Below, one piece after another: positions 34,075-51,700 of a stretch of 64,000 nt of DNA (positions within the stretch are counted from its first letter, which is position 1; each line of letters begins with the position of its first letter). Below the pieces are notes generated by a model that saw only the letters and a program-made list of their open reading frames with translations, made no database searches and had not been told where the DNA came from. The DNA comes from Escherichia coli (lineage in GTDB: Bacteria > Pseudomonadota > Gammaproteobacteria > Enterobacterales > Enterobacteriaceae): assembly GCF_029227855.1 (NCBI RefSeq), contig NZ_CP074357.1; one strand, 5' to 3'. The position numbers and the translations under genes are program-made.

Positions 34075-34938
34075 ATGATACCTAATAGCGAAAATAAAAG
34101 AGTATGGTTTATTACCGGAGCAAGCAAGGGGCTTGGCTATGCTTTTACATGCGCCGCCTTGAAAGCCGGGGATAAAGTTGTTGCAGTTGCAAGGACTATC
34201 GATAATTTGGCGAAGCTAGAAGAAACATATCAAGAGAGCTTACTGCCATTAAACCTCGATGTTACAGATAGGGAGGCTGTTTTTTCTACGGTTGAAACAG
34301 CAGTTAAACATTTCGGTAGGCTTGATATTGTTGTTAATAATGCGGGTATCATGACTATGGGTATGATTGAAGAACTAAACGAATCCGATGCTCGGAAACT
34401 AATGGACACAAACTTTTTTGGAGCTCTTTGGGTTTGTCAGGCAGTGATGCCCTATTTGAGGTCGCAGCGTTCTGGACATATCATACAGATTACAAGCATT
34501 GGCGCTATTATCTCGGGTCCGATGTCTGGTATTTACAGTGCAAGTAAATTTGCGCTGGAAGGAATGAGTGAAGCCTTAGCAAAAGAAGCGGAACATTTCG
34601 GAGTGAAACTCACTATGGTGGAACCAGGAGGATATTGGACAGATTTATACACTTCGATGAGTTACAGCAATCCATTAGATTCATACGGTACACTGCGCGA
34701 TGAGCTGGCGAAACAGTATTCCGAAGATTCGGTCGATAGTGATCCTTCCTTGGCAGCGGAAGCCCTTATGAAATTAGTAGCCAGCAATAATCCGCCTTTG
34801 AGGCTTATCCTTGGCAGCATGGTATACGATTTGGCGATGGATACCTTAAAAGCACGGATGGCTACCTGGGAAGAATGGGAAGCTGTTAGCCGTGCATCAG
34901 AAAAGGCTATTCCTGCACCGGAGAGATATGGAGTATAA
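34075..34938 (+). CDS. short-chain dehydrogenase/reductase (SDR) family oxidoreductase
   Basis: 287 aa with TGASKGLG cofactor motif and YSASK catalytic motif. Confidence 0.8.
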   Translation: MIPNSENKRVWFITGASKGLGYAFTCAALKAGDKVVAVARTIDNLAKLEETYQESLLPLNLDVTDREAVFSTVETAVKHFGRLDIVVNNAGIMTMGMIEELNESDARKLMDTNFFGALWVCQAVMPYLRSQRSGHIIQITSIGAIISGPMSGIYSASKFALEGMSEALAKEAEHFGVKLTMVEPGGYWTDLYTSMSYSNPLDSYGTLRDELAKQYSEDSVDSDPSLAAEALMKLVASNNPPLRLILGSMVYDLAMDTLKARMATWEEWEAVSRASEKAIPAPERYGV

Positions 34939-34975
34939 TACCAAACATGGTTTTTGAGGCAAGGACGAAACTATC

Positions 34976-35221
34976 ATGAAAATTGAAATTATGGAATATA
35001 ACCCGGATTGGACAAAGAATTTTGAAGAAGAGAAAATAAAATTGCTCCATTTTTTCGGTTCTCATGCCGTAGCCATTGAACATATCGGAAGCACGGCGAT
35101 ACCCAATCAACGGGCGAAACCGGTTATAGATATATTTATTGGCGTTTCGCCTTTTGCTGAACTACCTTTTATCAGCGCATTTTTAATGCAAAGGAGTATC
35201 ACCACACTCCGACAGATATGA
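34976..35221 (+). pseudogene. GrpB-family protein, N-terminal fragment
   Basis: 81-aa ORF MKIEIMEYNPDWTKNFEEEKIKLLHFFGSHAVAIEHIGSTAIPNQRAKPVIDI.. about half normal length. Confidence 0.45.
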
Positions 35222-35689
35222 CAGGCAGATATTTGTTTGCAAAATATACAAATGAAGTTTGGACCCATAATCTTCTTGCTTTGGTGTAGGTATAATACCC
35301 AAAAACGAAGTTTATGCGGAACAGGATAACACCTCGAAATCGGAGTTTATATGGCTTCGTGGGGGAGTTATGTGTTTGAGCTTTGTCGCATTAACGCGAA
35401 TCAGGGGTTGACGGCAGAAATAGACTGGAATTACACTTCTTGGAGTCGGCGTTGCCGGAAAATTCTGATTGGATTAGTTGTTCGGGGTGCGAAAACAGTC
35501 GTAGTTCGGGGAAAAAACCGAATTTTGACCCAAAACCGCGAAAAACTCGAAATGACAGTTCCTATCAGTTTTCATAATGAATTAAAACAAAAAAATTAGG
35601 CTGCAAAGATAGGGAAAATGTGTCAATTTGCGTAAGTGATAATTAGTCAATTAAGATAAATGCTACTTTTGTAATCAAAGCAAAATGAT

Positions 35690-36481
35690 ATGAGCAAGAT
35701 TTTTGGAATCGTAAATATAACCACCGATAGTTTTTCCGATGGAGGACTTTATTTAGATACAGATAAGGCAATTGAGCATGCTCTGCATTTGGTTGAAGAT
35801 GGAGCAGATGTGATTGATTTGGGAGCCGCTTCCAGTAATCCTGATACAACTGAAGTGGGCGTTGTGGAAGAAATCAAAAGACTCAAACCTGTCATTAAGG
35901 CTTTAAAAGAAAAAGGCATTTCTATTTCTGTTGATACATTTAAACCTGAGGTTCAGAGTTTTTGCATAGAACAAAAGGTTGATTTTATTAATGATATTCA
36001 AGGTTTTCCTTATCCTGAGATTTATTCAGGCTTGGCAAAGTCAGATTGCAAACTTGTGTTGATGCACTCCGTTCAGCGAATTGGTGCAGCTACTAAAGTT
36101 GAAACGAATCCGGAAGAGGTTTTTACTTCCATGATGGAATTTTTTAAAGAAAGAATTGCTGCTTTAGTTGAGGCTGGTGTAAAGCGTGAACGAATTATTC
36201 TTGATCCGGGTATGGGCTTCTTTTTAGGCTCTAATCCAGAAACATCTATTCTTGTTTTGAAGCGTTTCCCTGAAATTCAAGAAGCTTTTAATTTGCAAGT
36301 AATGATTGCAGTGTCACGGAAATCATTCTTAGGTAAAATAACTGGAACCGATGTGAAATCTCGTTTAGCACCAACTCTTGCAGCAGAAATGTATGCATAC
36401 AAAAAAGGTGCAGATTATCTCCGCACCCATGATGTTAAGTCTTTATCAGATGCCTTGAAAATATCCAAAGCCCTAGGTTAG
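35690..36481 (+). CDS. sul3: sulfonamide-resistant dihydropteroate synthase Sul3
   Basis: 263 aa MSKIFGIVNITTDSFSDGGLYLDTDKAIEHALHLVEDGADVIDLGAASSNPDT..; AT-rich like its flanks. Confidence 0.9.
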   Translation: MSKIFGIVNITTDSFSDGGLYLDTDKAIEHALHLVEDGADVIDLGAASSNPDTTEVGVVEEIKRLKPVIKALKEKGISISVDTFKPEVQSFCIEQKVDFINDIQGFPYPEIYSGLAKSDCKLVLMHSVQRIGAATKVETNPEEVFTSMMEFFKERIAALVEAGVKRERIILDPGMGFFLGSNPETSILVLKRFPEIQEAFNLQVMIAVSRKSFLGKITGTDVKSRLAPTLAAEMYAYKKGADYLRTHDVKSLSDALKISKALG

Positions 36482-36702
36482 TTTTATTTTTTTAGCTTTC
36501 TAAATGAATATGCTATACTTGCTCTGAAGTTGTGTTGGCGTACTTGACTTAGGTCTGGATCTTTCGAACTGTTACTAAGAGGGTAATCATAGCCAAACAT
36601 AAACTGGAAATGTCCTAATTCTAAACCTGTTCCAATACCTACACTATGGTGATGCTGCCAACTTACTGATTTAGTGTATGATGGTGTTTTTGAGGTGCTC
36701 CA

Positions 36703-36978
36703 GTGGCTTCTGTTTCTATCAGCTGTCCCTCCTGTTCAGCTACTGACGGGGTGGTGCGTAACGGCAAAAGCACCGCCGGACATCAGCGCTATCTCTGCTC
36801 TCACTGCCGTAAAACATGGCAACTGCAGTTCACTTACACCGCTTCTCAACCCGGTACGCACCAGAAAATCATTGATATGGCCATGAATGGCGTTGGATGC
36901 CGGGCAACCGCCCGCATTATGGGCGTTGGCCTCAACACGATTTTCCGCCATTTAAAAAACTCAGGCCGCAGTCGGTAA
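36703..36978 (+). CDS. insA: IS1 InsA
   Basis: 91 aa [43 protein letters not shown].. Confidence 0.9.
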
Positions 36979-37400
36979 CCTCGCGCATACAGCCGGGCAG
37001 TGACGTCATCGTCTGCGCGGAAATGGACGAACAGTGGGGATACGTCGGGGCTAAATCGCGCCAGCGCTGGCTGTTTTACGCGTATGACAGGCTCCGGAAG
37101 ACGGTTGTTGCGCACGTATTCGGTGAACGCACTATGGCGACGCTGGGGCGTCTTATGAGCCTGCTGTCACCCTTTGACGTGGTGATATGGATGACGGATG
37201 GCTGGCCGCTGTATGAATCCCGCCTGAAGGGAAAGCTGCACGTAATCAGCAAGCGATATACGCAGCGAATTGAGCGGCATAACCTGAATCTGAGGCAGCA
37301 CCTGGCACGGCTGGGACGGAAGTCGCTGTCGTTCTCAAAATCGGTGGAGCTGCATGACAAAGTCATCGGGCATTATCTGAACATAAAACACTATCAATAA
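36897..37400 (+). CDS. insB: IS1 InsB frame (expressed as InsAB' by frameshift)
   Basis: 167-aa ORF overlapping insA in the -1 frame. Confidence 0.85.
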
Positions 37401-37443
37401 GTTGGAGTCATTACCGGAGAATTGTATCATTAACAGTCTAGTT

Positions 37444-38109
37444 CTAACGACTACCACTTTTAAGTATGTATTGAGCCAGTTTTATATTCAGGCACACCAT
37501 ATTGCACTCTAGCTCTTTCATCATTCTTGAAGAACTCTTAATTAAGTATTCTTCAAGTGGGCCAGCATATGCCCCTGATGTCACGATCGTTAGTTGCGTA
37601 AGAGGATGAGTCAAACTCTCAATGCCCTTCAGGATGTCATTCTGGACAGCAGCAATATAAACAGGCGAAGCCGCAATCAAATATTCATCATTCGGGCTGG
37701 ACTGCATTAACTGGCTTATAGTTGCGCAACGGTTATGCTTACCTAGTGATTTTGTGATGGCTTTCCACCAGAGATCATGCCTGAATGGTACTTGATGAAA
37801 TGTCGCCTCGTAAGAGGGCACCCGATCTCGACTATTTAAAAACCCCATCCCGGCAGAGATTATCCACAACTCCAGATTTCTGGTTGAGTTTAAAATTTCC
37901 TTTGCCGTAGACCAGTGATTACCTGAATACAAGGACAATGCCGGTACCGCCTGATTACTTCTGGCGTCGTCTACAATGTTACTCCAGGCATATGCTGCGT
38001 CGTCCGGGGTTTGTTTTGGATCTATGTCCAATGTCGGCCAGACGTGGCCCTGATGATTCTTGCCCTTTGTACAGGAAGTGATTAAGTGTACTGAGCGTTC
38101 AGAGAACAT
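37444..38109 (-). CDS. hypothetical protein (221 aa)
   Basis: ORF track; second gene of a two-gene minus-strand unit; no motif recognised. Confidence 0.5.
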   Translation of the reverse strand: MFSERSVHLITSCTKGKNHQGHVWPTLDIDPKQTPDDAAYAWSNIVDDARSNQAVPALSLYSGNHWSTAKEILNSTRNLELWIISAGMGFLNSRDRVPSYEATFHQVPFRHDLWWKAITKSLGKHNRCATISQLMQSSPNDEYLIAASPVYIAAVQNDILKGIESLTHPLTQLTIVTSGAYAGPLEEYLIKSSSRMMKELECNMVCLNIKLAQYILKSGSR

Positions 38110-38166
38110 TATCTTCCTTACATACCCATAGAACAGCTTTCTAAGAACGGTGGGCTCGCCTGAAAA

Positions 38167-38547
38167 TTACAAATCAGCCCCTTTCACGGCATCATTTTGA
38201 TTCTTCGCGTCTGCCCCCAGTAAGATGACCGGTTTTCTGCATGACAGTGTTATTCCTAACAAACGCAACACAAAACCACGCCAGCCAGAGCAAATTTTTT
38301 CATTTGCTGCGTAAAGCCTATTGTTTTCTCTTTTAAGCTTCGCCCACTCGTTACAGAGGGTAACATCATCAAGCGCTGTTATATGCTTCGCCTCACCTTC
38401 GACGATAACGGTATGGATACCGTATGCTGTAAATCTCATACTATTTTCCAGAACCCAGTTGCGGTATTCGTCGAGTCCACCTTCGGAACCGGTAGCTCTG
38501 CGCCACATTTCAATTTGCTTGTGTGATGGGTCAAGTGTACTTGTCAT
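38167..38547 (-). CDS. hypothetical protein (126 aa)
   Basis: ORF track; first gene of the same unit, reading away from the 630-bp IR-rich intergenic region. Confidence 0.5.
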   Translation of the reverse strand: MTSTLDPSHKQIEMWRRATGSEGGLDEYRNWVLENSMRFTAYGIHTVIVEGEAKHITALDDVTLCNEWAKLKRENNRLYAANEKICSGWRGFVLRLLGITLSCRKPVILLGADAKNQNDAVKGADL

Positions 38548-39177
38548 TGAAGCCTCGTCTCAGCGATAACGCTTGAAATAGCCCGCTTTGGTCATCATGA
38601 AATTAGCCATCTGACTGGCGATTTGATTGTATCTTACTCATAGTGCCCTACCTATAGGTTAAAAAGGGGCATTTTCGCTTTATAGCGTGTTCAGCAGCAT
38701 CAATCCTCCCAAGAAAGGCTGGCTTATTAAGCCGGTCCATCATTTTCTGTATATCTCTCATCAATTTTTATATCCGCCCTGGAGTGCACCGTTCAAGCAC
38801 ACCGATTAGGCAGATAGTCACTAGTTAACTCTTTACTAGTGACTAAATTCCATTGATATACGTGACAACGTCACGTCATGAAAGCTTATAAATGCCTATT
38901 TTTCATACAATGGGATTTAATTAGGAGTAAATCCCATAGGCTTACATAAGGATGACAATTAAAAGCGTTAAATATCAACCAGATAGAATGATTACCCCCA
39001 ATTAATGGGCTCATCACATTATTTCACTGGCTGGGGTTATTGCTGGCATATCTGAAAGTGCTAATATGTTAGTCATTAGTAATTAGTAAAGCCTTTACTA
39101 AACGCGTTTCTACGTAAATTCTATAGGTTTTATAGTGTCCTACCTTTGCTCAAATCAAAATGTTCTGACATACCAAA

Positions 39178-40008
39178 ATGGAGTGTAAAATGACTCAAAA
39201 CCAGGGTTCTGAGCCAGTACCGGCGAGCCGGACAGGGCAGCTCATCAGCGCCCGGGATATGGCCATGCAGAAATTCGAAGAAGGGATGCGGTTAATCTCG
39301 GAAGCGTCGGAACTGTGCGGTCTCTCTCTCTTCACCAGCAGAATTATGCAGCCCAACGCATTTGGTCTTCCGTCGTCACTGGATCGCACCATCGAGGAGG
39401 GGCGTAAGGAAATTGACCGTAAAACGTGGAAAAGGCTCTTTGAAGAAACAGGTATGGACCGGTACTGGAACCATAAGCAAAAAGAAGCCTTTAACGAATC
39501 CCTTCGTACGGATCCGCCCGTCGCTTCCCTGGAGATTGTTAAGGGAACATTACAGCATGCACTGGCTAACAGACGAGACACCCTTGCAGAAGGTTTCGTT
39601 GATGTTCTCAACAAGCTTGACCGAAGTTTCAAAAGCAATGCCAGGCAATATACAATGCCAAAAAAGCTTGTTCTTCGGGGGATTTTTCCTGGTGTGAACG
39701 TGCTGAGGTACAACGGTTTCTCGCAGGACAATCACTTTTGTTTACGCGACTTTGAGAATATTGTATGCATCTGTTCTGATACTCCAACACCTGCAACCGG
39801 CGGTGGGCTGAGTATGGTCGACAGGCTGACGGCCATGAGAAATACAGAATTCACAGGCGAGGTCAGTGATGAGAATGGCTGGCGGTGTCGCCTGTTTGAG
39901 AATGGAAACGTTCATATTTGCATCGACAGTATCTCGCTTCTGAATGCTCTGAACGATCTTATCAGCATATATTTTGCAAACCAGCTTCCGGCCGCAGGAA
40001 AAAAATGA
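39178..40008 (+). CDS. hypothetical protein (276 aa)
   Basis: ORF track; stop overlaps start of the downstream coiled-coil gene (ATGATG at 40005). Confidence 0.6.
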   Translation: MECKMTQNQGSEPVPASRTGQLISARDMAMQKFEEGMRLISEASELCGLSLFTSRIMQPNAFGLPSSLDRTIEEGRKEIDRKTWKRLFEETGMDRYWNHKQKEAFNESLRTDPPVASLEIVKGTLQHALANRRDTLAEGFVDVLNKLDRSFKSNARQYTMPKKLVLRGIFPGVNVLRYNGFSQDNHFCLRDFENIVCICSDTPTPATGGGLSMVDRLTAMRNTEFTGEVSDENGWRCRLFENGNVHICIDSISLLNALNDLISIYFANQLPAAGKK

Positions 40009-41210
40009 TGATTGAAAATGATAAAGAAAAAAGCCTGAACGATGCTACCCCGCCAGAGGTGCAGAATGACATCCGCAGCGAATCCACTGAAAAATCAAAG
40101 GAAATGGGTCGTTCAAGGTACTCATCTATCGCGATGATCGATTACTTCAATGCAATCGAACGTCTGTGCAAAGAGAAAGAAATTAACCCGGAAAATATCG
40201 ATCTGAGCTTCAAAGTTCACTGGCTCAGAAACGCTGTTGGCGGCTCGTTTGCAAGGTCACAGGAGATGTTCGCGGAGTACCAGAAGTATGTTAAAGAGGT
40301 TCCTGAAGAGGCCCGTTACCTGGATATACCCGATGAGGTAAAGGTTGCACTCGGCGATATTATCTCGTACATCACCTGGCACTACCGTAGAAGCTATACC
40401 GCAATACAGAATGATAGTGTTAAAAAAGCTGAAGCACGTAGCATGCAGCTGGAGGAGGAGGTAACGCAGCTGTTACAGCGGCTTGAGCAAAGCGCTACCG
40501 ATATGGATGAGCTGAAACTTGAGAATCAGGCACTACAGGGTCGATTAGAGATCCGGGACAGTACCGTCAAGGAGTTAGAAACAAGGCTGAATGTTGCCGA
40601 AGCAGAACTCGAAACCTGCCATCACCAGTTAGATAGCACACGGCATGAATTGAGCCTCGCACAGCAGTCAAATGACTCACTCTCCCAGCAACTGGCTGAA
40701 CGTAAAACAGAGATCGCTGGTCACCTTGAATATCAAAAAAAGCTGAACGAAGAGATCAACACGCAGCGTTCTGATAACGCCGGTCTTTCCAGACAATGCG
40801 ACCAGTTAAGTCAGACTGTGTCAGATACAAAGGCAGAGAGGGACAGGTTTGAACAGGAATTGATTGCTGCACAGAACCTTTGTACTGAGCTGAAAAGTGC
40901 ACTGTCCGGGAAAGAGGGTGACCTGGTGGCGGTGAATGCCGAGCTTACTGAACTCCATAAACTAAACGAGTCGCTGAGCGCCGACCTGAATAAAGTAACT
41001 TTGGTCAGCCAGGGCTATGAAGCGGAAGTGGCTGAACAAAGCAATGAACTCAAAACGCTCCAGGCCAAAGTAATGAAGCTGGAAGCTACCCTGGAGGCGG
41101 AGAAAACAATCTCAGAATCCCTAAAAGGCACCATTGATACATTAACTGGTGCAATGGCAGGGGGAGGTACTGGAAAGTCAAAACAGCCGCGTAGCAGAAA
41201 AACATCATGA
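40005..41210 (+). CDS. coiled-coil protein, KfrA-like architecture
   Basis: ~401 aa from MMIENDKEKS; long heptad-like Q/E/L-rich segment ..LEEEVTQLLQRLEQSATDMDELKLENQALQGRLEIRDSTVKELETRLNVAEAELE..; start uncertain. Confidence 0.55.
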   Translation: MMIENDKEKSLNDATPPEVQNDIRSESTEKSKEMGRSRYSSIAMIDYFNAIERLCKEKEINPENIDLSFKVHWLRNAVGGSFARSQEMFAEYQKYVKEVPEEARYLDIPDEVKVALGDIISYITWHYRRSYTAIQNDSVKKAEARSMQLEEEVTQLLQRLEQSATDMDELKLENQALQGRLEIRDSTVKELETRLNVAEAELETCHHQLDSTRHELSLAQQSNDSLSQQLAERKTEIAGHLEYQKKLNEEINTQRSDNAGLSRQCDQLSQTVSDTKAERDRFEQELIAAQNLCTELKSALSGKEGDLVAVNAELTELHKLNESLSADLNKVTLVSQGYEAEVAEQSNELKTLQAKVMKLEATLEAEKTISESLKGTIDTLTGAMAGGGTGKSKQPRSRKTS

Positions 41211-41273
41211 TAAATGAAGCCAGGTTGATACACTTCTCTGCATCCCCTGGCACATAAGAACTTCTGCGGACAT

Positions 41274-41477
41274 TCAGCCCGTCCGCAGGAGTTTTCGTCC
41301 TTCAGTCAACAAATGCACTACCTTTTTTGAGTCTCCACTTTCCAGAGCAGAAAACACGTTACCGATTCTACCAACAGCTTGTATCTGAGTGATAACCCCA
41401 GTCTTGTAATCATCTAGGATCCCTGACAGGAAAGCGTTCAGTTTTGTCTGTTCGCTTAGCGAAAGCATGTAGGACAT
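41274..41477 (-). CDS. hypothetical small protein (67 aa)
   Basis: ORF track; immediately downstream of the 439-aa gene in the same orientation. Confidence 0.4.
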   Translation of the reverse strand: MSYMLSLSEQTKLNAFLSGILDDYKTGVITQIQAVGRIGNVFSALESGDSKKVVHLLTEGRKLLRTG

Positions 41478-41489
41478 TTTTTCTCCATT

Positions 41490-42809
41490 TTAAGCAGGTG
41501 TGTCAGTTGAAAGAGGTTTGCGTGATTCTGGAAAATGAGGCAGCACCATAGTTTCAGATGCTGTGGTCGCATCCCAGTGCCACCATCCATAAGGCCCATA
41601 TTCACGGTTGTAATAATCTTTTTTGAGTTGCTTTCGGGCCAGATAAGCAGGAGTGGCCATACCAAATACTTCCATCGGGAACGGCTTATCGCTTTTTGTG
41701 TCGAGCAGGTAGAAGTCAGGGAACACCTCACTAATACTCGCATCATAACGCATGGGCTTAACGTACTGCCGGTGCTCTGCATCCAGCTTTTCTGCAACAA
41801 CCGCCTCATAGGAGGAGTCCAGAGGTATCCAGTTCTCGCTAACGTGCATCAGCACAATTTGATGAGCTCTTACAGAAGGGCCTCTGCCGGTTACCGCAGC
41901 TGGTGACGTCAACGCAAAGACAACTATTTTCGCCCCGGATTTCCATGCTGCGTACTCCGATGAAAATCGTTTCTTTACGCTATCCCAATGGACTTCTGAA
42001 TTGAAAAAAATCAGCGGTAGCCCCCCAAAATTCCGCAGGGGTAAAAATTTAAGTGGCTTCTCATGCTTTTCAGCATCGTAGCGAGGTAAAACTGACAGGA
42101 GCATGAGACGTTTATCACTCATCGCCTGTGATGAAAGACGCTGAATTTGCGACTGAGCGACAGGTTGTTTCGGGTCAGGTACACCAATGAATAAATGGTC
42201 ACCTATGCAGGCTCTGCCGGTACGAATTTGTTTAGCGGTTTCAAGCAGACGATACCGTACCAGTGAATCGTTACGTTTCCCTGCCATTTTCGGGTACCAG
42301 ACATTCAGACCAGACTCTGTCCACAAAAGACTAAGCAAGCCCAGGAGGGTCATTGAGGCCTGACCTCCTTCTGGTCGCTGAACATGGGGCAGGGGAGGCA
42401 CTTCTGATTTTTCAGGAGGATCTTTCTCTGTCATACCGATACCGAGCCTTACAGCCATATCACCTTCGGTTGTAATCCGGACCACACCACTCGCATATCC
42501 TTTCAGGCCGGTATGCCGGGCATCAAGGGAGAAGAATACACAGGAAGGATCATGCTCAATGCCCGTGTTAGCGGCTTTGACGAGAATAAAGGCATCACCG
42601 TTCGGTAAAGCACGAACATAAAGTCGCTTTTCTCCTTTTCCACGACATCCGCAGGTGATGACTGATTTTTGACCTGAGGTGTGGTGTGCCTTTTTAAGAG
42701 CCGACTGCCACCCTTTAGCAAACTCATCCTGCGTTTGAAAGTCAGGTGAATACCTTTTGACGTTTGGATCGTCGTCGTAAGCAATCATCACTGCGAATTT
42801 TTGGCTCAT
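41490..42809 (-). CDS. hypothetical protein (439 aa), partner of the Dcm-like methyltransferase
   Basis: ORF with AGGAGA ribosome-binding site 6 nt upstream; no catalytic motif assignable by eye. Confidence 0.65.
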   Translation of the reverse strand: MSQKFAVMIAYDDDPNVKRYSPDFQTQDEFAKGWQSALKKAHHTSGQKSVITCGCRGKGEKRLYVRALPNGDAFILVKAANTGIEHDPSCVFFSLDARHTGLKGYASGVVRITTEGDMAVRLGIGMTEKDPPEKSEVPPLPHVQRPEGGQASMTLLGLLSLLWTESGLNVWYPKMAGKRNDSLVRYRLLETAKQIRTGRACIGDHLFIGVPDPKQPVAQSQIQRLSSQAMSDKRLMLLSVLPRYDAEKHEKPLKFLPLRNFGGLPLIFFNSEVHWDSVKKRFSSEYAAWKSGAKIVVFALTSPAAVTGRGPSVRAHQIVLMHVSENWIPLDSSYEAVVAEKLDAEHRQYVKPMRYDASISEVFPDFYLLDTKSDKPFPMEVFGMATPAYLARKQLKKDYYNREYGPYGWWHWDATTASETMVLPHFPESRKPLSTDTPA

Positions 42810-42831
42810 AGTAGTCTCCTAAACAGGAAGT

Positions 42832-42999
42832 TTAATATCCCAACCAGAGCAACACTTCCTGAGCGTCATACTGTTCCTTTACGCCCATGTCGCTAAAGAA
42901 TTCTTCGAAATCTGTTTCGGGAACGCAATGCCTGGACAGTTCTTGTAATGCTCGTTCTTTAGATACCGTCTCACCTTCAGCTGATTCGAAATACGTCAT
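42832..42999 (-). CDS. hypothetical small acidic protein (55 aa)
   Basis: Hand-translated: MTYFESAEGETVSKERALQELSRHCVPETDFEEFF..; below ORF-track size cutoff; sits between methyltransferase and 439-aa gene. Confidence 0.3.
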   Translation of the reverse strand: MTYFESAEGETVSKERALQELSRHCVPETDFEEFFSDMGVKEQYDAQEVLLWLGY

Positions 43000-43059
43000 G
43001 GTTGACCTCTGACATTATTACAACAATCTTAAGCATTTAAATTGATGAAGGAGCTCAGG

Positions 43060-44529
43060 TCAGCTGACTTCGTCGTAAAACTGCCGCAAGCGCTGGGAGG
43101 CTGCAAATTCAATTCGTGACTTCAGCAGTTTGGCGACGGCCGCAAAGACATCAACGACCACGGAGTTCCCAAACTGTCTGTAAGCCTGTGTATTGGACAC
43201 AGGGATACGGAAAACACTTTCCCCGGGTTTATCGAAGCCCATTAGCCTGCTGCATTCACGTGGCGTTAGCATGCGTGGCCGACGGTCCATGTTGTATGTG
43301 TTATGGAAATCAGTTTCTCCCAGTTCATGAGACCAGCCCCGATCAATAAGAATTTCAGATCCGTCTTTCATATAGCGGCTTGAGAGGGTTCTGGTGACAC
43401 TATTAACATTGGAAGGATCTACTAGTCCAAAACCAAAACCATTGCCTTTTGCCGCATGTTTCTTTGCATAGTTGTATAAGTACTCCCAGAGTTTAGGGGA
43501 GAGGATGTATTTACTATCTACGCTCGGATCCAGTAAATCTGAGAGAGAAGGGCGCTTGTCCGGATAAAAGTCTTTAATGTCTCTCAGAGTAAAACCGTCT
43601 TTCAGACGTAGGTCGCGGCGAAAACCAATAAGGACGATACGTTCACGGTGCTGGGGTCGGAAATGACGGCCATCGATGACTTTAGGATCATCCGCGCCCG
43701 TGCTTTCGCTGTTTGCGACGTCGTAGCCAAGCTCATCGAGCGTTTTCATGATGATGTTAAAGGTATTACCCTTATCGTGACTCTTCAGATTTTTTACGTT
43801 TTCCAGAACAAAAATTGCAGGTTGTTTTGCCCGGATGATCCTGGCCACATCAAAGAAGAGCGTACCCTGAGTGTCGCACTCGAAACCGTGTTTGCGACCC
43901 ATAGAGTTCTTTTTACTGACACCGGCGATGCTGAATGGCTGGCATGGAAATCCCGCAAGAAGAACATCATGATCCGGGATAGAGGCATCGATAAATTTGT
44001 ATGCCTCGTCATCAGTAACCTCGGGCCGGTTGCTAAGAGTGATGTCACGGATGTCTGAATTGAAGCGGTGCTCGTTCTCATCGCAATACCAGTTCGCCCG
44101 GTAAGTACGGCTGGAATAAGTATTCCATTCGCTCGTGAAAAGACATTTACCACCGATGGCATCAAATCCGCTTCGCAGTCCACCTATCCCTGCAAACAGA
44201 TCGATAAAGCTAAAGTGCCTGTCCTCATAATCAGCAGGTCGTGAAGGTATTAAAGTCTGTAGATAGCGTCCATCTGCGATACTCAGCTCACAATGCTCAG
44301 GTATGCATGTAACCTGACGTTTAAGGGATGCACGGGACCAATTACTGCCATTTTCATCATTTAATACCTGAGCCAGATATTTCAGGTCATAAATGGTCGA
44401 AGCTGTTAACAAAGTTTTGTGGATCAGAGATGGTGTTTTATCCACATCATTCAGGTCTGTCTCAAGATCATGAGTGTAACGTTTCATCCAAACTCTCTCA
44501 GGAATAATATCTTTGAGATAGATTAACAC
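43060..44529 (-). CDS. DNA cytosine-5 methyltransferase, Dcm / M.EcoRII family
   Basis: 489 aa; motif [11 protein letters not shown], motif [10 protein letters not shown], motif [17 protein letters not shown]; colinear with E. coli Dcm by eye. Confidence 0.9.
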
Positions 44530-44662
44530 GCTTAATTTGGATTATTTTTTGGTTCAGGTTCTAAATTTATTGTGATTATTCTGCCTTTAAGTTGCAAAAA
44601 GATTGGTTTTAAGCCCGCCCATGAAATAATGACTTGTTAAAATACTGCCTGTAAATAGGCTT

Positions 44663-45217
44663 GTGGATACATGTCTGTACTCAACAAATCAAGGTGAAAT
44701 GATGTTTTTTTTAACAAAGTTACTTTTGCCCATCATGATTGTTGTATTCCCAGTGGCGTCCTGGGGGAACTCAACAACTTTTGAGGCAAAGGTGGTTAAG
44801 ATTGTTGACGGTGACACCATAACTGCGTTGGATGCTCAAAACACAACCATCAAAATACGGATGTATGGTATAGACGCTCCTGAATCTAAACAGGCTTTTG
44901 GCCAAAAAGCAAAACAGGCCTTAACCACAGCTATAGCAACTAAAATCGTTACCGTGATAGACCATGGTACGGATATCTATGGCCGTATGTTAGGTACCAT
45001 CTGGTTAGATGGATATGATATCAATGCCTCTATGGTGGACAGTGGATATGCGTGGGTTTATCGGTTCGAAGATAACGCCATTGTCCCTGGCTATATCAAA
45101 TATGAATCCGCAGCACAAAAGGAGGCAAAAGGGTTATGGGCAGACACCAACCCTGTCCCACCATGGCAGTGGAGACAGGCAAACGAAAAGCCCAGAAAGG
45201 TGAAAGAGAAGAAATAA
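44663..45217 (+). CDS. secreted SNase-like (thermonuclease-family) nuclease
   Basis: Signal-peptide-like N-terminus (probable start MMFFLTKLL at 44699); ..VKIVDGDTITALD.., ..RMYGIDAPE.., ..YGRMLGTIW.. resemble staphylococcal nuclease. Confidence 0.75.
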   Translation: MDTCLYSTNQGEMMFFLTKLLLPIMIVVFPVASWGNSTTFEAKVVKIVDGDTITALDAQNTTIKIRMYGIDAPESKQAFGQKAKQALTTAIATKIVTVIDHGTDIYGRMLGTIWLDGYDINASMVDSGYAWVYRFEDNAIVPGYIKYESAAQKEAKGLWADTNPVPPWQWRQANEKPRKVKEKK

Positions 45218-45219
45218 CC

Positions 45220-46116
45220 ATGATGAAAGAGCCTCATCCGTTACTTCAGTTGGTACTAAACGATTCCGGTCGTCTAACCATGCCTGTTTATTATAGAGAT
45301 CAACAGTATTGCCCGACTTGCCTTACAAAGGTGTTGAAGAGTGAGGATGGAAGTTTGGCGCACCTCGGGGAAATAAATCAAAATACATGTAGACCTTCTA
45401 TTTCAGTAGTTGTGACAAAAGCAATTATTGAAATGTTATGTGACGGGGAAAAAATATATGTAAATCCAATACGACACCGAGGCCGGGTGCTGGCACCCTC
45501 AGTAATTTTTTCTCCCGACACTCACACTTTCAAACCGTTTATAAATACAGACTATCAGCCTGTGGGAGCAAACTGGAAAAGTGAAAAGGGATATAAACTC
45601 GGTCTGTTTTATCTCAAAGATCGAGCCAACTCTATCAATAAAGAGGAATTTGATTTCATTGCCGTTATAGACCCTGAGGCAATGCAGAAAGAATTTATTT
45701 CGGCCTGGTCTGAGGTTGATGAAAAAAATCCATTGGAAACGCTGAAGCAGATCTTACGATCTAAAAACAACTCTTCTTTATGGGTAAAATGGCCTGGCAA
45801 AATTGAGCATGCGCAAAAAGGAAATTACAACGAAAATTACTGGTTCGATTATCAATCTGATAATCAGGAAGTGAACTGTACGGTCTCTGTTGTAGGTATC
45901 GAAGGTAACAGTTCCGGTGAGACAATTTATAGATTGCAAACTTTGCTAAAGCGTAAGCTCAATGAATATCAACTGGTTCGGTCTTTAGGGACTATTATGC
46001 TTCTTGATAATACCGGGAATATGATTCCATCAAACCATCCTTATTTTGAAGTCATCTCAAAAGCATGTATAAATGGAGTGCGTGACTTTGTTCGTCAAAA
46101 CCCGTGGGTAGTCTGA
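45220..46116 (+). CDS. hypothetical protein (298 aa)
   Basis: ATGATG start 3 nt after nuclease stop (ORF track begins earlier at 45136). Confidence 0.55.
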   Translation: MMKEPHPLLQLVLNDSGRLTMPVYYRDQQYCPTCLTKVLKSEDGSLAHLGEINQNTCRPSISVVVTKAIIEMLCDGEKIYVNPIRHRGRVLAPSVIFSPDTHTFKPFINTDYQPVGANWKSEKGYKLGLFYLKDRANSINKEEFDFIAVIDPEAMQKEFISAWSEVDEKNPLETLKQILRSKNNSSLWVKWPGKIEHAQKGNYNENYWFDYQSDNQEVNCTVSVVGIEGNSSGETIYRLQTLLKRKLNEYQLVRSLGTIMLLDNTGNMIPSNHPYFEVISKACINGVRDFVRQNPWVV

Positions 46117-46163
46117 CGGTCAACTATAAAGCATAATATAATTAGTAATAACAAGGAACAGAC

Positions 46164-46571
46164 ATGAATGAAAACTCAGTAATCTTAATAAGTTTATTTT
46201 GGTTTTTTTTGGGATCGAGTGTTGTAGCTGGTTTTATGGATGCATCATTATATTGCTGGATTTTTGCAGCCATAAGCGCATTGTTTCTTCTTTCGGTGAT
46301 ACAAACACCAAAGGAGTTAACGGTATCTATTAGTCATATGACAAGCAAAACGCTGATCTCAAAGACAGATGATGGATACACATTTAGCATTTCACCTTAC
46401 GGAGACGGGTACCGCTTATCAGTCTCGCCTGAAAATCGTCACAATGGTACCCAAAGCTTTGACGGCTGGTTCCCACGTTTTTTTTCCGAACCACAGTATG
46501 CCAAATCATCTTTAACTAAATTTCTCGGTGAGTCCTTAGTATGGGAAGAAGATTCAAGTAATGCTCTATGA
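46164..46571 (+). CDS. hypothetical membrane protein (135 aa)
   Basis: Two N-terminal hydrophobic segments. Confidence 0.5.
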   Translation: MNENSVILISLFWFFLGSSVVAGFMDASLYCWIFAAISALFLLSVIQTPKELTVSISHMTSKTLISKTDDGYTFSISPYGDGYRLSVSPENRHNGTQSFDGWFPRFFSEPQYAKSSLTKFLGESLVWEEDSSNAL

Positions 46572-46616
46572 GATTACTTATTATAAATTTTTCTATTAAT
46601 CTCCATGGAGTGATAT

Positions 46617-46871
46617 ATGAATTTGGCCTATTTTTTATTTTTGTCTATAACTGTTATGCTTACGAGCTTTATTATTAAATCACTTGTCGTATTGGTAAAG
46701 TTCAAATTACTTCGTGATGAACGTCTCGAATATACCAGCAATAAAAATATTGATGAGATGTACGATTTAATGAATGCGAAGGAAGAAATCCTCATAAGGC
46801 ATCATAAGCAGATGTTGGCATTGCATCTTTCACTATTAATATTCGTTCTATTTATTGCTTACATTTACTAA
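46617..46871 (+). CDS. hypothetical small membrane protein (84 aa)
   Basis: Hydrophobic N- and C-terminal segments. Confidence 0.45.
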   Translation: MNLAYFLFLSITVMLTSFIIKSLVVLVKFKLLRDERLEYTSNKNIDEMYDLMNAKEEILIRHHKQMLALHLSLLIFVLFIAYIY

Positions 46872-47196
46872 AAATAATTTTATTCAACATTTCAACAAAG
46901 GGTTTTCAATGGAAAGCTTCGAAACTGAACAAATGATTCAATATGCTTTCTACATAAATATCGTAATAACGACTGGTTTGGCATGGTTTTGCTTGCGGTC
47001 AGGATTGCATTACAATTTTTTCAGAAAAGCAGAGAGTGCCAGAACAAAAGGGCTGAGTAGTACCTCTACTGAACACGGTCCAGCAATAGTGAGACTAAAG
47101 AAGCTACAAGCATTAGTAGATTTTATTAGTAACTGTGCTTTTCTAATCCTTTCAATTGGCACAGCTTATATTTTGTATGTTTGGAGCCACAGTTAA
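46855..47196 (+). CDS. hypothetical small membrane protein (probable start at MESFETEQ)
   Basis: Two hydrophobic segments; start uncertain. Confidence 0.4.
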   Translation: MLTFTKNNFIQHFNKGFSMESFETEQMIQYAFYINIVITTGLAWFCLRSGLHYNFFRKAESARTKGLSSTSTEHGPAIVRLKKLQALVDFISNCAFLILSIGTAYILYVWSHS

Positions 47197-47232
47197 CTCA
47201 TACGAGGTAACTTCGGCAGGTAACAACTTCTA

Positions 47233-47463
47233 ATGCAGGACTTTAATAACTCTAAGGGATTCTACATGAAAAAAGACGATCTAATTACGCGTTGTAAATT
47301 ACTTAAAGGCGAACGCGATGAGTCTATCTTTACCATATTAATTGGGATAGTAGTAAAGCTGGGGCTGGTAGGCCTGGCATTCTATCTGTTGCTTGGTTCC
47401 ACGATTGATTGGTCAAGCTGGAAAACTTATGCCGCCATGTTGATCTTGGGAGCATTTCTCTAA
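47233..47463 (+). CDS. hypothetical small membrane protein (76 aa)
   Basis: C-terminal hydrophobic segments. Confidence 0.4.
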   Translation: MQDFNNSKGFYMKKDDLITRCKLLKGERDESIFTILIGIVVKLGLVGLAFYLLLGSTIDWSSWKTYAAMLILGAFL

Positions 47464-47799
47464 AATCTTGAACCTTTTTTCACTCATTACAAGCCATGAC
47501 CTAGTGCGTAGATCATACGATCTTTAAACCTTATGTCATTGATTTATAAGTACATATAACAAAGATTATGTTAAATACTGTATGTATGTACAGCATCAAC
47601 AGTTGCCCCCCTCATATTGAGGTAATTGCTACATTCATACCACTATTCTTCTTATAGTATCGACATCCTGAATTATTGCACCCTACTGCTTTGTCTTTAG
47701 CTGTTCCGAATTAAAATTCATTGCTCAATTTGGATCACATGACGATCAGCGTATTCCTTTGCTTTATCAAAGTTAAGTTTTTAAAACATAAGATATGTA

Positions 47800-48261
47800 A
47801 TGACAAATTCTCAATCTGATTTTCCTTTGAACGATCAAAATTTTCAGGCAGATTTGCTGAAAATCAAAAAGGTTTTCGCCGACCTTATAACGCAGGCATC
47901 AGATGGTAAGATACCCATAAGGTCTTCTCATGTACACGGCTTACACCATTTCGAGGAGCTCTACATCCGGGCAAGAGCAGGCATGTGTTCGGTCCTGGGA
48001 TATCCGGTCATGGTTGTTTCAACTATCTCAGTTAAAGAGCCCGGCACAGGCATTTTTAGAGCGCTTCTTGCAGAATTGAAATGTATTGCAGATGAACAAA
48101 ATTACATTTTGAAAATTGAAAATGTACTGCCTCCCCTATTCCGCAAATACCTTATTCAAGAAGGTTTTGTTTTCCCAGGTGAACCTTGGATGTGTGGTTC
48201 CGGCTATTGGTTTAAGAACCCACAAGTACTTCATGAAAATATTGAGTTATTATCTGTTTAA
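47800..48261 (+). CDS. hypothetical protein, possibly GNAT-like acetyltransferase
   Basis: 153 aa; ..VKEPGTGIFRALL.. fits the K/R-x-x-G-x-G/A acetyl-CoA motif loosely. Confidence 0.45.
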   Translation: MTNSQSDFPLNDQNFQADLLKIKKVFADLITQASDGKIPIRSSHVHGLHHFEELYIRARAGMCSVLGYPVMVVSTISVKEPGTGIFRALLAELKCIADEQNYILKIENVLPPLFRKYLIQEGFVFPGEPWMCGSGYWFKNPQVLHENIELLSV

Positions 48262-48290
48262 GTCGATCTAACAATTTCACTGGAGCTAAC

Positions 48291-48698
48291 ATGTCCCCGG
48301 AATTGGTATCAGACATTGCAAGAGTGGCGCATGAAAAGCTACTTTCAATTTTAACGGAGTGCGGCATAGAGAAGACGGCAGGCACTTGCCTTTTTGCAAG
48401 CTATCTTGTGTGTTATTTAGCAAAAACTAAAGGTCTAGATGCTGTTGTCCGTGGGGGTAACGGTGCAGATGATGGCGGTATATTTATAGAGTGTGGTGGC
48501 TTTGGCCATTATTGGTGTGAGTTGAATTTCGAAGAAGTGCAATATTATATTGACATCACTTCCGAACAGTTTGGGTTTCATCCATACATAGTGAAACTCG
48601 CCAACGATATAACAGGATGGCCTCGATATATTCCTGGTGATCAGGAAACGGTCGATAGTCATTTAGAACAATTATTACGCGACGGCTATACAGAATAG
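48291..48698 (+). CDS. hypothetical protein with Cys/His/Asp pattern
   Basis: 135 aa; ..GTCLFASY.., ..GHYWCE.., ..YIDIT.. could form a thiol-hydrolase triad. Confidence 0.45.
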   Translation: MSPELVSDIARVAHEKLLSILTECGIEKTAGTCLFASYLVCYLAKTKGLDAVVRGGNGADDGGIFIECGGFGHYWCELNFEEVQYYIDITSEQFGFHPYIVKLANDITGWPRYIPGDQETVDSHLEQLLRDGYTE

Positions 48699-48748
48699 GC
48701 TGCGTATACCCTATCGCAGCCTTTCAGGCTCTTAACCCTTGTGACCTG

Positions 48749-49276
48749 TTAACGGAACCACTCAGGATGACGCTGCCGATCAACTTTGATAACCTGCGAA
48801 TTAAATTCAACGACATCCGCTGGAGTAAGCATTAATTCATCAGGATTTACAATAAATGGTCTTAAAACCACTTCGCCACCGTCTTCTTTTGCACCGTAGA
48901 TATTAATAAGAAAGTGCAGTCGTTGATTTCCTTCAGCATTGCGTTGCCATTCTCTAAAAGTCAAAGTTTGTTTAATATAGTTTGTTAAAAGAAATGCGAA
49001 TTCAGATTCTTCCGTTTGTGAGATACCGATTTTGTTAGACATTTTTTTTAGTATCTTTCCGAGCATGGACACACAGGCATCTAGACTTAACGATGTTGAA
49101 ATTTTGGTCGTATTAAAATCCTCCTGCGAAAGTGAAATCATCCATGTATTATCTTTATGATAGTCGGTAATATAAATAAAATGAGATGTAAAAGGCGTTG
49201 AGTGATTGAACTCTCCTAAGTTCCATCCATACTGACTCACTGTATTTGAGCTAAGTTCTTTGTCGGTAATGTTCAT
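48749..49276 (-). CDS. hypothetical protein (175 aa)
   Basis: ORF track; convergent with the 47800-48698 pair. Confidence 0.5.
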   Translation of the reverse strand: MNITDKELSSNTVSQYGWNLGEFNHSTPFTSHFIYITDYHKDNTWMISLSQEDFNTTKISTSLSLDACVSMLGKILKKMSNKIGISQTEESEFAFLLTNYIKQTLTFREWQRNAEGNQRLHFLINIYGAKEDGGEVVLRPFIVNPDELMLTPADVVEFNSQVIKVDRQRHPEWFR

Positions 49277-49442
49277 AATTCATACCTTTCGATAAAGTCT
49301 GTAATGATAATTAGCTATCTCAAAGGACCAGAACAACTCTTGAAATAACCACACTCGAAGAATTTATCATATTGAACACCCCTACCTAATAACCTTGCCG
49401 ACTTAATAAATCACAATAGCCCTCCCCTGACATTTTAAAATG

Positions 49443-49829
49443 CTACTTGAATTTTTGATAGCTTATGGTTGTTTTATGTTCTTTGTGATACGCATATGTC
49501 ATCTTCTCTTTCCAGTACCAATCTTGTAGATCCTGCAAGTCTAGCCCATTTTTCTCACGTATGCTTTCGTGTAATTCGCTAAGCGCGAGTTTATCATTAG
49601 GTTTATAAATGGCTAATTTTTCTTCAAATAAATCCAGCCAACGTTTCCCCATCTTACGACGCAAAACAAACACCATCGTGATAAATGTAATGAAATGCAC
49701 AGCAATTAGTTCCAACTTATGCGATTGCTGACCAGATAAAATTACTATTGTAACAACAGGGATGGCCGTATATAAAGCAATCAAAGCGACCATAAGTTGG
49801 TATGGTTTTTCCCGTATTACCATGTTCAT
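49443..49829 (-). CDS. hypothetical membrane protein (128 aa)
   Basis: Two predicted TM helices; start lies 40 bp from the Tn1721 IR. Confidence 0.45.
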   Translation of the reverse strand: MNMVIREKPYQLMVALIALYTAIPVVTIVILSGQQSHKLELIAVHFITFITMVFVLRRKMGKRWLDLFEEKLAIYKPNDKLALSELHESIREKNGLDLQDLQDWYWKEKMTYAYHKEHKTTISYQKFK

Positions 49830-49902
49830 GGGTAAACCAGAGGACGCTACTGCTTGCCAAAATCTTAAAGGGGAGCCCGCAGAATTCGGAAAAAATCGTA
49901 CG

Positions 49903-51700
49903 CTAAGGTTTTCCGGGCATCCGTAAGGGCCGAAACTTCCCGTCTTCCAGTCTGCGGCTCTGCCGCCAGACGTAATCGCCGGTTAGGTTGATGTGCTCCC
50001 AGCCCAGCGGCGACAGGAATTGCAGCAGCTCGCCGTCCACCGGCTTGCCGGCCTCGACCAACCCCTGGGTGGCGCGTTCCAGGTACACCGTGTTCCACAG
50101 CACGATAGCCGCCGTCACCAGGTTGAGGCCGCTGGCCCGGTAGCGCTGCTGCTCGAAGCTCCGATCCCTGATTTCCCCAAGGCGGTTGAAGAACACCGCC
50201 CTGGCCAGCGAGTTGCGCGCCTCACCTTTGTTCAGGCCGGCATGCACGCGGCGGCGCAGTTCAACACTTTGCAGCCAGTCCAGGATGAACAGCGTGCGCT
50301 CGATCCGGCCCAGCTCGCGCAGGGCCACGGCCAGTCCGTTCTGGCGCGGGTAGCTGCCGAGCTTGCGCAGCATCAGCGAGGCGGTGACGGTGCCCTGCTT
50401 GATCGAGCTGGCCAGGCGCAGGATGTCGTCCCAGTGGGCACGCACGTGCTTGATGTTCAGGGTGCCGCCGATCAGCGGGCGCAACGTCGGGTAGGCTTGC
50501 ACGCCCTGCGGCACGTACAGCTTGGTTTCGCCGAGGTCGCGGATGCGCGGCGCGAAGCGGAAGCCTAGCAGGTGCATCAGGGCAAAGACGTGATCGGTGA
50601 AGCCGGCCGTGTCGGTGTAGTGCTCCTCGATCCGCAGGTCGGACTCGTGGTACAGCAGGCCGTCGAGCACATAGGTGGAATCGCGGACGCCGACATTCAC
50701 CACGCGGGTGCTGAACGGCGCGTACTGGTCGGAGATATGGGTATAGAACAGCCGTCCCGGCTCGCTACCGTACTTCGGGTTGACGTGCCCGGTGCTCTCG
50801 CCCCGGCCACCCGCGCGGAAGCGCTGGCCATCGGAGGATGAGGTCGTGCCGTCGCCCCAGTGGGCGGCAAAGGCGTGGCGATACTGGTGGTTGACCAGCT
50901 CGGCCAAGGCCGCCGAATAGGTTTCGTCGCGGATGTGCCAGGCTTGCAGCCAGGACAGCTTGGCGTAGGTCAGGCCGGGGCTCGACTCGGCCATCTTGGT
51001 CAGCCCGAGGTTGATCGCATCACCGAGGATTGCGGACAGCAGCAACGTCCTGTCTTTGGCCTCGGCCCCGTCCTTCAAGTGGGTGAAGTGGCGGCTGAAG
51101 CCCGTCCAGTCGTCCACGTCCATCAGCAGTTCGGTGATCTTGATGCGCGGCAGTAACTGGCTGGTTTGGTCGATCAGCGCCTGCGCCCGATCCGGCACCG
51201 CCGCATCCAGCGGGGTGATTTTCAGCCCTGACTCGGTGAGGATGGCATCGGGCAGCTCGTTGTCCTTGGCCAGGCGGGTGACGGTGGCCAACTGCTCGTC
51301 CAGCAGCTGCAAACGCTCTTCCAGGTACTGGTCGCTGTTCGGGTTGATCGCCAGGGGCAGGGCCTGCTCGCGCTTGAGTGCGGCGAACTTCTCGGCCGGC
51401 AGCAGGTAGTCGTCGAAGTCGCGGAACTGCCGCGAGCCCTTGACCCAGATGTCGCCGGAGCGCAGGGCGTTCTTCAGCTCGGACAGGGCGCAGATTTCGT
51501 AGAATTTCCGGTCGAGGCCTTCCGGGGTGATCACCAGCGGCTTCCAGCGCGGCTTGATGAAGGCCGTGGGTGCATCGGCCGGCACCTTGCGCAGGTTGTC
51601 GGCGTTCATCTCACGCAGGGTCTGCACGGCTGCCAGCACGCCTTGCGCGGCCGGCCCGTGCTGTTCCCCAACTTTTCGCTCGGCGAAGAGTATGAACATG
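49903..51700 (-). pseudogene. tnpA: Tn1721 tnpA' (3' portion of transposase gene)
   Basis: 606-aa ORF ending ..[11 protein letters not shown]; 5' boundary approximate. Confidence 0.8.

Follow-up and report, generated by a model that had tools for sequence, protein, structure and literature searches.

The 64,000-nt window analyzed (Escherichia coli assembly GCF_029227855.1, contig NZ_CP074357.1) contains a ∼12.4 kb block of mostly uncharacterized genes (positions 37416–49869) lying between two mobile-element ends. Direct reading placed the left border at position 37415, where the terminal repeat (...AAGTTGGAGTCATTACC) of an IS1 copy (36648–37415) terminates, and the right border at 49870, the first position of a 38 bp terminal inverted repeat of the Tn1721/Tn21 type (49870–49907; GGGGAGCCCGCAGAATTCGGAAAAAATCGTACGCTAAG). 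The 9 bp sequences at the two sides of the IS1 copy were unequal (CTACACTAT and GGAGAATTG), indicating that there is no target duplication. These borders, and the missing duplication, are exactly those of the original prediction, which had been made from the sequence alone. The block had also been described as more AT-rich than its flanks. This applies to the right side only: the guanine-plus-cytosine (GC) content was 0.428 for the block, 0.636 for the next 6 kb rightward and 0.516 for the whole window, while the sul3 module to the left of the block was equally AT-rich (0.400). The number of plausible open reading frames (ORFs), 18, was as predicted, although they form about six transcription units rather than five. 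Fifteen of these ORFs carry a RefSeq annotation in an identical plasmid; two of the other three, those of 67 and 95 amino acids (aa), are conserved in IncHI1 plasmids.

A megablast comparison of the whole block with 72,556 plasmids gave 1254 matching records, 615 of them with a coverage of at least 80%. The best 30 of the 1254 covered the block in full length with 100% identity, and corresponded to plasmids of 150–290 kb; the size range is 150–350 kb for the hundreds of conjugative IncHI2/HI2A plasmids that contain the block. The matching records were mostly typed as conjugative, their chief hosts being Escherichia, Salmonella and Enterobacter, and repHI2 and Tra genes are present on plasmids matching the block. 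Positions 37410–51419 of the window, the Tn1721-type junction included, were colinear with an exemplar plasmid typed as IncHI2A, MOBH and MPF_F (NZ_LT795115). The right junction and the 1.5 kb following it were identical in another IncHI2 plasmid, and the IS1 junction was identical in at least 188 plasmids; both junctions have been inherited inside an IncHI2 lineage. Gene order and right junction agree with those of the IncHI2 reference backbone, represented by R478 of Serratia marcescens and by ST3-type plasmids from E. coli and Salmonella, with 100% identity for the best matches, the R478 sequence itself lying outside the comparison. The sequence of the block is therefore not new: it is already known and has been deposited hundreds of times. 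The block almost certainly belongs to the native backbone of a conjugative IncHI2 (R478-type) plasmid and is no inserted island.

The original prediction had considered two alternatives, backbone of an unidentified plasmid type or cargo from a low-GC donor. The full-length IncHI2 matches bear out the backbone and not the cargo, and the plasmid type can now be named as IncHI2/HI2A. A gene-for-gene match to a well-annotated plasmid region had been named as an outcome that would speak against an undescribed system; the gene-for-gene backbone match was found, but 11 of the 15 RefSeq coding sequences of that backbone are annotated as ‘hypothetical protein’. As to which lineages carry the block and whether its gene order is kept, which the prediction had proposed to check by BLASTN, the IncHI2 lineage carries it and the order is conserved in IncHI1.

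A genomic island from a low-GC donor, carried between mobile-element ends, would fit the GC content of 0.428 and the presence of such ends at both sides. However, in IncHI2 plasmids without this IS1 the DNA runs uninterrupted into more backbone genes. In one of them (locus L001), the leftward continuation contains genes for proteins of 151 and 78 aa, H-NS-family and HNH genes, a UvrD-like helicase and HipA; sequence comparison found none of that DNA in the window, where the backbone is cut by IS1 just downstream of the gene for a DUF6884 protein. Since the L001 backbone runs on leftward and that DNA is gone here, the IS1 copy marks a deletion or rearrangement of the adjoining sfh/H-NS side, not the delivery of the block; the missing target duplication also fits a deletion or rearrangement better than a delivery. 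The conserved order in IncHI1, at 35–81% aa identity, makes the block older than the split between IncHI1 and IncHI2. The AT-richness can be explained without a foreign donor because the core genes of IncHI1 plasmids are reported to be significantly lower in GC than their accessory genes (PMC5390554). An island is thus extremely improbable, the low-GC cargo reading being effectively refuted by backbone continuity, IncHI1 synteny and native low GC.

Between 11 and 12 of the 18 ORFs were found in the same order, with 35–81% aa identity, in the IncHI1 plasmid pRHB17-C02_2 (CP057714) and in a copy carried by the chromosome of E. coli OU349849. Both have, in succession, H-NS, DUF6884, DUF4942, a coiled-coil protein of ∼405 aa, an ORF of ∼70 aa, DUF1173, a 56-aa ORF and Dcm, followed divergently by an SNase gene and a ∼310-aa ORF. 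In the IncHI1 (R27 family) region the core genes thus lie, in identical order, beside an H-NS-like gene. This conserved core corresponds to the left 8.7 kb of the block (37444–46116). The right 3.7 kb (46164–49829), in contrast, is largely IncHI2-specific and mostly without counterpart in IncHI1, where just a 135-aa and a 95-aa ORF match, weakly. Because IncHI1 and IncHI2 share the core gene order, the core predates their split. In a Klebsiella MOBH plasmid, homologues of the DUF6884 protein, a 153-aa protein of the right-hand part, the SNase, DUF1173 and H-NS lie inside ∼6 kb; MOBH plasmids therefore tend to carry these genes together. In the E. coli OU349849 chromosome, a gene past the SNase operon (L007, 16071–16855) showed a faint match to SMODS, the nucleotidyltransferase of CBASS-type systems.

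The core includes a four-gene operon, dcm-orf55-DUF1173-orf67, with gaps of 60, 22 and 12 nt between its genes. It ends at a terminator-like stem-loop (41264–41288, scored on the minus strand) with a 9 bp stem including six GC pairs, located between convergent operons. The operon is headed by a gene (43060–44487, minus strand) coding for a 475-aa Dcm-type DNA cytosine-5 methyltransferase that lacks a companion restriction gene. The protein scored 846 bits against NCBIfam NF007772 (cut-off, 710), was rated best by PADLOC under its orphan-methyltransferase model (3e-206), and its translation shows the FAGIGG, PCQPFS and ENV (LENVKN) motifs. It belongs to the same NCBIfam subfamily as E. coli Dcm, M.EcoRII and the Dcm of plasmid pKAZ3, with the catalytic motifs kept. 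The pKAZ3 dcm likewise lacks an adjacent restriction gene, and its presence on the plasmid gave ∼2700-fold protection from EcoRII (PMC11602122). In contrast to E. coli dcm, the plasmid gene is not followed by vsr, orf55, DUF1173 and orf67 being found there instead. From its subfamily we infer that this methyltransferase recognizes CCWGG; the block contains 25 such sites, against ∼15 expected, and so shows no depletion.

The second gene, orf55 (42832–42999, minus strand), codes for an acidic 55-aa protein (isoelectric point 4.2; 13 Asp/Glu against 4 Lys/Arg) equivalent to SMR0164 of R478. It matched phrog_25588 over its full length (2e-24). Its phage homologues, both from Autographiviridae, are gp02 of Escherichia phage PGT2 and gp01 of Pectobacterium phage PhiM1, the latter being the first gene past the terminal repeat; the PhiM1 record itself names the R478 ORF SMR0164 as a homologue. 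In T7, a phage of the same family, the first-gene position holds the anti-restriction protein Ocr. By this analogy of position orf55 may be a candidate anti-defence factor, and nothing beyond that. The last gene of the operon, orf67 (41274–41477, minus strand), codes for a basic 67-aa protein that had no family match in the library scans; its counterpart in IncHI1 is 60% identical and annotated.

The DUF1173 gene (41490–42809, minus strand) codes for a 439-aa protein with an N-terminal putative Cys2-His-Cys zinc site, a middle part giving matches of the oligonucleotide/oligosaccharide-binding (OB) fold type (the domain not being mapped), and a C-terminal domain with a PD-(D/E)XK nuclease fold. 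The Pfam DUF1173 match had an E-value of 6e-39, and a scan of 1.84 billion representative proteins yielded 1170 relatives. In an alignment of 110 relatives, C53, C55, H86 and C90 were invariant, and E335, K351, D365, D370, E380 and K396 were conserved at 94–99%. An AlphaFold2 model of the protein reached a predicted local distance difference test value of 93 and a predicted template modelling score of 0.91. The top matches in a fold search with this model were PD-(D/E)XK proteins, namely RAP domains (6.7), Vsr (6.5) and I-Bth0305I (6.2), followed by VRR-NUC and Hjc; some OB folds were found as well. The C-terminal domain thus has in common with PD-(D/E)XK nucleases such as Vsr, RAP, VRR-NUC and Hjc both the fold and a conserved E...PD...E arrangement plus Lys residues. 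No solved structural relative was found that covered the whole of DUF1173, or the whole of the DUF4942 protein described below. The model and the alignment suggest that DUF1173 is probably a zinc-binding, metal-dependent nuclease, putatively active on DNA intermediates of mobile elements.

The position of this gene in the dcm operon raises the question of whether Dcm and DUF1173 form an undescribed restriction-modification-like pair, in which Dcm would mark self and DUF1173 would cut unmethylated (or methylated) DNA. Their co-transcription with gaps of only 12–60 nt, kept in IncHI1, IncHI2 and the chromosomal copy, would suit such a pair, as would the nuclease fold of DUF1173 with its conserved acidic residues. 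Outside IncHI, however, DUF1173 was found without an adjacent methyltransferase in five of five loci (a Klebsiella IncFIB plasmid, a Pseudomonas IncP-type plasmid, an IncFII/R plasmid and two integrase-linked elements), where its neighbors were partition, umuDC, integrase or H-NS/SNase genes. No conserved partner emerged near distant DUF1173 homologues, only integrases and other mobile-element genes. The family was detected in 3315 of the 72,556 plasmids, including plasmids of Pseudomonas and Acinetobacter, genera that are not known to have Dcm. DUF1173 is also the sole nuclease-like neighbor of dcm in the block, and PADLOC scores the methyltransferase best as an orphan. Such a pair appears very unlikely.

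DUF1173 might alternatively take the place of the missing Vsr, nicking the T:G mismatches left when 5-methylcytosine produced by the plasmid Dcm is deaminated. The Vsr match in the fold search is a likeness at the fold level only, other PD-(D/E)XK families scoring equally, and the linkage to dcm is restricted to the IncHI lineage. Moreover, the conserved E, D, E and K residues are typical of classical PD-(D/E)XK enzymes, unlike the Asp/His active site of Vsr. This role is quite improbable. The stand-alone occurrence of DUF1173 outside IncHI therefore weakens both the restriction-partner reading and that of a dedicated Vsr substitute.

At the left end of the core lies the gene for the DUF6884 protein (37444–38109, minus strand; 221 aa). 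It matched the PADLOC DpdC model PDLC02818 with an E-value of 4e-59, over profile positions 3–233 of 319, while the Pfam DUF6884 match was weak (2e-6). The CxxxK (C13, K17) and SAG-x-G (S85, A86, G87, G89) motifs, described for the YaaA-like DUF6884 family (PMC11701544), were invariant or nearly invariant in 15 homologues. The profile match and these motifs are thus common to the plasmid protein and to DpdC of the Dpd 7-deazaguanine system, although the plasmid protein is ∼90 residues shorter than the 319-position profile. The two also differ in context: neither dpdA and dpdB nor dpdD-K were found near the plasmid gene in the six loci read (L001, L002, L005, L007, L008 and L009), and PADLOC picked up none of the remaining Dpd components, either in the block itself or in ten backbone genes upstream of it. 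DpdC converts preQ0-DNA into ADG-DNA without the need for DpdA or DpdB (PMC10164549). Judging from its motifs, which are intact, the protein is an orphan DpdC/YaaA-like putative DNA base-flipping enzyme, which probably acts on a flipped DNA base, chemically altering or sensing it. It is one of a group of plasmid-borne proteins of ∼221 aa that were found in 3023 of the 72,556 plasmids, among them IncL/M plasmids with the size of pOXA-48.

In one of these IncL/M plasmids (L008, 7520–10153) the gene of the DUF6884 homologue occupies the third place in an operon, after one for a 395-aa protein with a RelB/DinJ-family antitoxin annotation and an overlapping 90-aa helix-turn-helix gene, a context unlike that in IncHI. 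Identification of this operon with the essential pOXA-48 genes orf19/orf20 was rejected, since these lie beside nuc, on the opposite side of the map. In Klebsiella plasmid pKP2509-MCR, ∼1.3 kb separates the orphan DUF6884 homologue, a fragment of which is called ‘tgtA5 cluster protein 2’ by RefSeq, from a SprT-like protease and a complete Type I restriction-modification system (L009, 1591–7683). Upstream of the DUF6884 gene of the block there is a RefSeq-annotated 126-aa ORF (38167–38547, minus strand), for which PADLOC, NCBIfam, PHROGs and Pfam gave nothing; just ∼40 of its residues are conserved in IncHI1, and these at another position.

The plus-strand operon converging on that of dcm contains a gene for a stand-alone DUF4942 protein (39190–40008; 272 aa) and one for a 401-aa coiled-coil protein (40005–41210). 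The two genes overlap by ATGA, indicating translational coupling. In its longer relatives, DUF4942 is merely a partner domain of methyltransferases; the stand-alone protein had no S-adenosylmethionine-binding motifs and no fold match, and a methyltransferase role for it was rejected. The 401-aa protein, 42% identical to its IncHI1 counterpart at the same position, gave only matches of the coiled-coil type (SMC, crescentin and the coiled-coil regions of LmuB/JetC), and a Pfam scan, which returned coiled-coil families only, revealed neither KfrA_N nor any other DNA-binding domain. Like KfrA of IncP plasmids, the 401-aa protein is the product of a plasmid-backbone gene and consists of a small N-terminal domain leading into a long alpha-helical coiled coil. 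It differs from KfrA in lacking KfrA_N and in the coupling of its gene to one for DUF4942, which is not known as a member of the kfrA operon. Within the 5′ end of the DUF4942 gene, on the minus strand, positions 39203–39267 matched the Rfam hammerhead HH9 with 22 bits (gathering threshold, 52; E = 0.12), most likely by chance. Apart from this sub-threshold match, the scans for non-coding elements (Rfam, repeats, promoters and terminators) yielded chance-level repeats and one plausible terminator.

Divergently from dcm, the right-hand part of the core starts with a gene for a 171-aa SNase-fold protein (44702–45217, plus strand), named ‘thermonuclease family protein’ in RefSeq. Its NCBIfam matches, EcnA and NucI, were under the equivalog cut-offs; PHROG endonuclease families matched as well, and the homologue in E. 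coli OU349849 (L007), 75% identical, carries a Pfam SNase annotation. A Kyte-Doolittle scan showed a hydrophobic, signal-like segment from residue 1. Membership of the SNase family, with a predicted secretion signal, is supported by these matches. Two nt behind this gene is orf298 (45220–46116, plus strand; 298 aa), for which PADLOC, NCBIfam, PHROGs, Pfam and PDB gave nothing. It is 52% identical in IncHI1, at the same position, and it matched 1555 plasmid records, almost all of them large enterobacterial plasmids of IncHI size; no relatives were detected outside such plasmids.

The right 3.7 kb begins with four small plus-strand ORFs (46164–47463; 135, 84, 95 and 65 aa), with the lowest GC of the block (0.30–0.41) and, in the Kyte-Doolittle scan, hydrophobic segments of the transmembrane type. 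The 135-aa and the 95-aa ORFs are those weakly conserved in IncHI1. None of the four had a family match in PADLOC, NCBIfam, PHROGs or Pfam, and the same is true of two RefSeq-annotated minus-strand ORFs at the right end (48749–49829) of 175 and 128 aa, the latter with two hydrophobic segments. Between them lies a plus-strand pair coding for proteins of 153 and 135 aa (47800–48698), for which Pfam, PDB, PADLOC and NCBIfam gave nothing. The family of this 135-aa protein occurs in 2090 of the 72,556 plasmids, Pseudomonas megaplasmids included, and in a Klebsiella plasmid a 44%-identical homologue of the 153-aa protein adjoins a DUF6884 gene. Inspected by eye, the 153-aa protein contains a GNAT-like PGTGIFRALL sequence, and the 135-aa protein a Cys...His...Asp series (AGTCLF, GHYW, YIDIT) of papain/transglutaminase-like appearance; neither found support in library or PDB searches. 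The right 3.7 kb thus codes for small membrane proteins and ORFans.

The original prediction had pointed to this block as the most likely site for an undescribed system. No discrete system was found: the 18 ORFs of the block, together with the ten upstream backbone genes, contained no complete defence system according to PADLOC-DB v2, and the conserved families occur singly. The PADLOC matches were isolated (DpdC-like, methyltransferase, SNase and LmuB/JetC), and those of the 401-aa protein to LmuB and JetC were rejected as coiled-coil noise. The DUF1173, DUF6884 and 135-aa families each occur alone in thousands of unrelated plasmids, not as a fixed set, in counts that left DUF4942 out. The profile searches that the prediction had proposed identified Dcm, the SNase, the DpdC-like protein and DUF1173, while 11 of the 18 ORFs had no match in NCBIfam, PHROGs or Pfam; these scans were run on proteins concatenated with glycine-serine linkers, and the ‘Serglycin’ matches obtained are linker artefacts. 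A PDB sequence search with six proteins found nothing. Of the three folds initially recognized by eye, those of Dcm and the SNase were confirmed, and the KfrA-like protein stands as a long coiled coil only, having no KfrA_N. Outside the window, the 679-aa UvrD-like helicase of the IncHI2 locus L001 (5736–8626) gave PADLOC matches to GajB and to a DRT helicase (∼1e-51); it is co-transcribed with a gene for a 284-aa Cys-rich protein without a family match, and the two could be a helicase-based module.

Wherever the domains of the core can be recognized, they all point to DNA transactions. Dcm would methylate CCWGG sites on the plasmid and on the host chromosome, blocking EcoRII-type enzymes of new or current hosts, and the product of orf55, co-transcribed with dcm, might counter another host defence. 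DUF1173 would act as a nuclease processing DNA intermediates of mobile elements; the DUF6884 protein would flip a DNA base and alter or sense it chemically; and the SNase, if secreted, would degrade DNA outside the cytoplasm. Among these proposed roles, experimental precedent exists for the function of Dcm alone. Taken as a whole, native IncHI2 backbone with a DNA-protection or establishment gene set is a likely explanation for the block. The part of it that describes the core as such a set, loosely assembled and not one machine, is put forward tentatively.

Several observations weigh against this interpretation. About half of the ORFs are uninformative, so that ‘DNA protection’ rests on five or six genes, and the fold search found no structural relatives of DUF4942. 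No functional studies on DUF1173, DUF4942, DUF6884 or IncHI2 backbone genes were found in the searchable literature. The ExK motif of DUF1173 is without its canonical Lys (E380-V-F, with Phe at the x-K site), and Laganeckas et al., who predicted the PD-(D/E)XK fold of this family in 2011, held it to be inactive (PMC3045609). Their view of an unconserved active site is revised by the present alignment, in which the acidic residues are conserved and the canonical lysine position alone is not; K351 or K396, conserved at 94–98%, could replace the missing lysine. Finally, the nearest transfer gene, trhI, lies ∼55 kb from the block, and the ter operon, hha and tus separate the two.

This last distance also bears on whether the block might be the leading region of the plasmid, the first to enter the recipient, and an anti-defence island as understood by Samuel et al. 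2024. Orphan methyltransferases, of which the block has one, are enriched in leading regions (PMC11541004). The homology of orf55 to a phage first early gene, and the location of psiA ∼4 kb from DUF1173 in a related Klebsiella MOBH plasmid, point in the same direction. However, apart from the separation from trhI, the block genes lie on both strands instead of in one direction, and the PADLOC, NCBIfam, PHROGs and Pfam scans found no ssb, psiB, ardA or klcA among the block ORFs. A leading region is thus unlikely. It is possible, though doubtful, that the core is an undescribed establishment or anti-defence module in which DUF1173 would be an active zinc-dependent nuclease of new architecture, the product of orf55 would be a new anti-restriction factor, and the DpdC-like enzyme would edit a DNA base chemically as a means of evading or disarming the immunity of the host. 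Low-GC cargo, a Dcm/DUF1173 pair, a Vsr substitute and a leading region are each weaker explanations than native backbone with a loose DNA-protection gene set.

Directly to the left of IS1, positions 34075–36481 contain ORFs of 287 and 263 aa which, by eye, code for a short-chain dehydrogenase and Sul3 (MSKIFGIVNITTDSF...); this module (40% GC) was unmatched in every locus compared, including two IncHI2 backbone stretches (L001 and L006). The DNA starting from the Tn1721-type repeat is present twice in the window (49869–51419 and 55357–57727). Positions 24454–26824 of the IncHI2 locus L001 correspond to the second copy with 100% identity, and also to the sequence from 49869 onward; the second copy in the window continues into IS26. 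At least eight full or partial IS26 copies, starting at about positions 1, 2345, 6719, 24671, 29250, 32843, 56908 and 58713, are scattered over the window, which indicates a multiresistance region built by IS26.

The block is standard equipment in a type of multidrug-resistance plasmid that is among the most common, and it shows how little of the backbone of these plasmids is understood. This paucity of known function characterizes the plasmid gene pool at large and is not peculiar to this window. IncHI2 plasmids are known from the literature to carry mcr-1, blaCTX-M and similar genes. If any of the DUF1173, DUF6884, DUF4942 and 135-aa families does help plasmids to survive their arrival in a new host, this would have a bearing on how such resistance genes spread.

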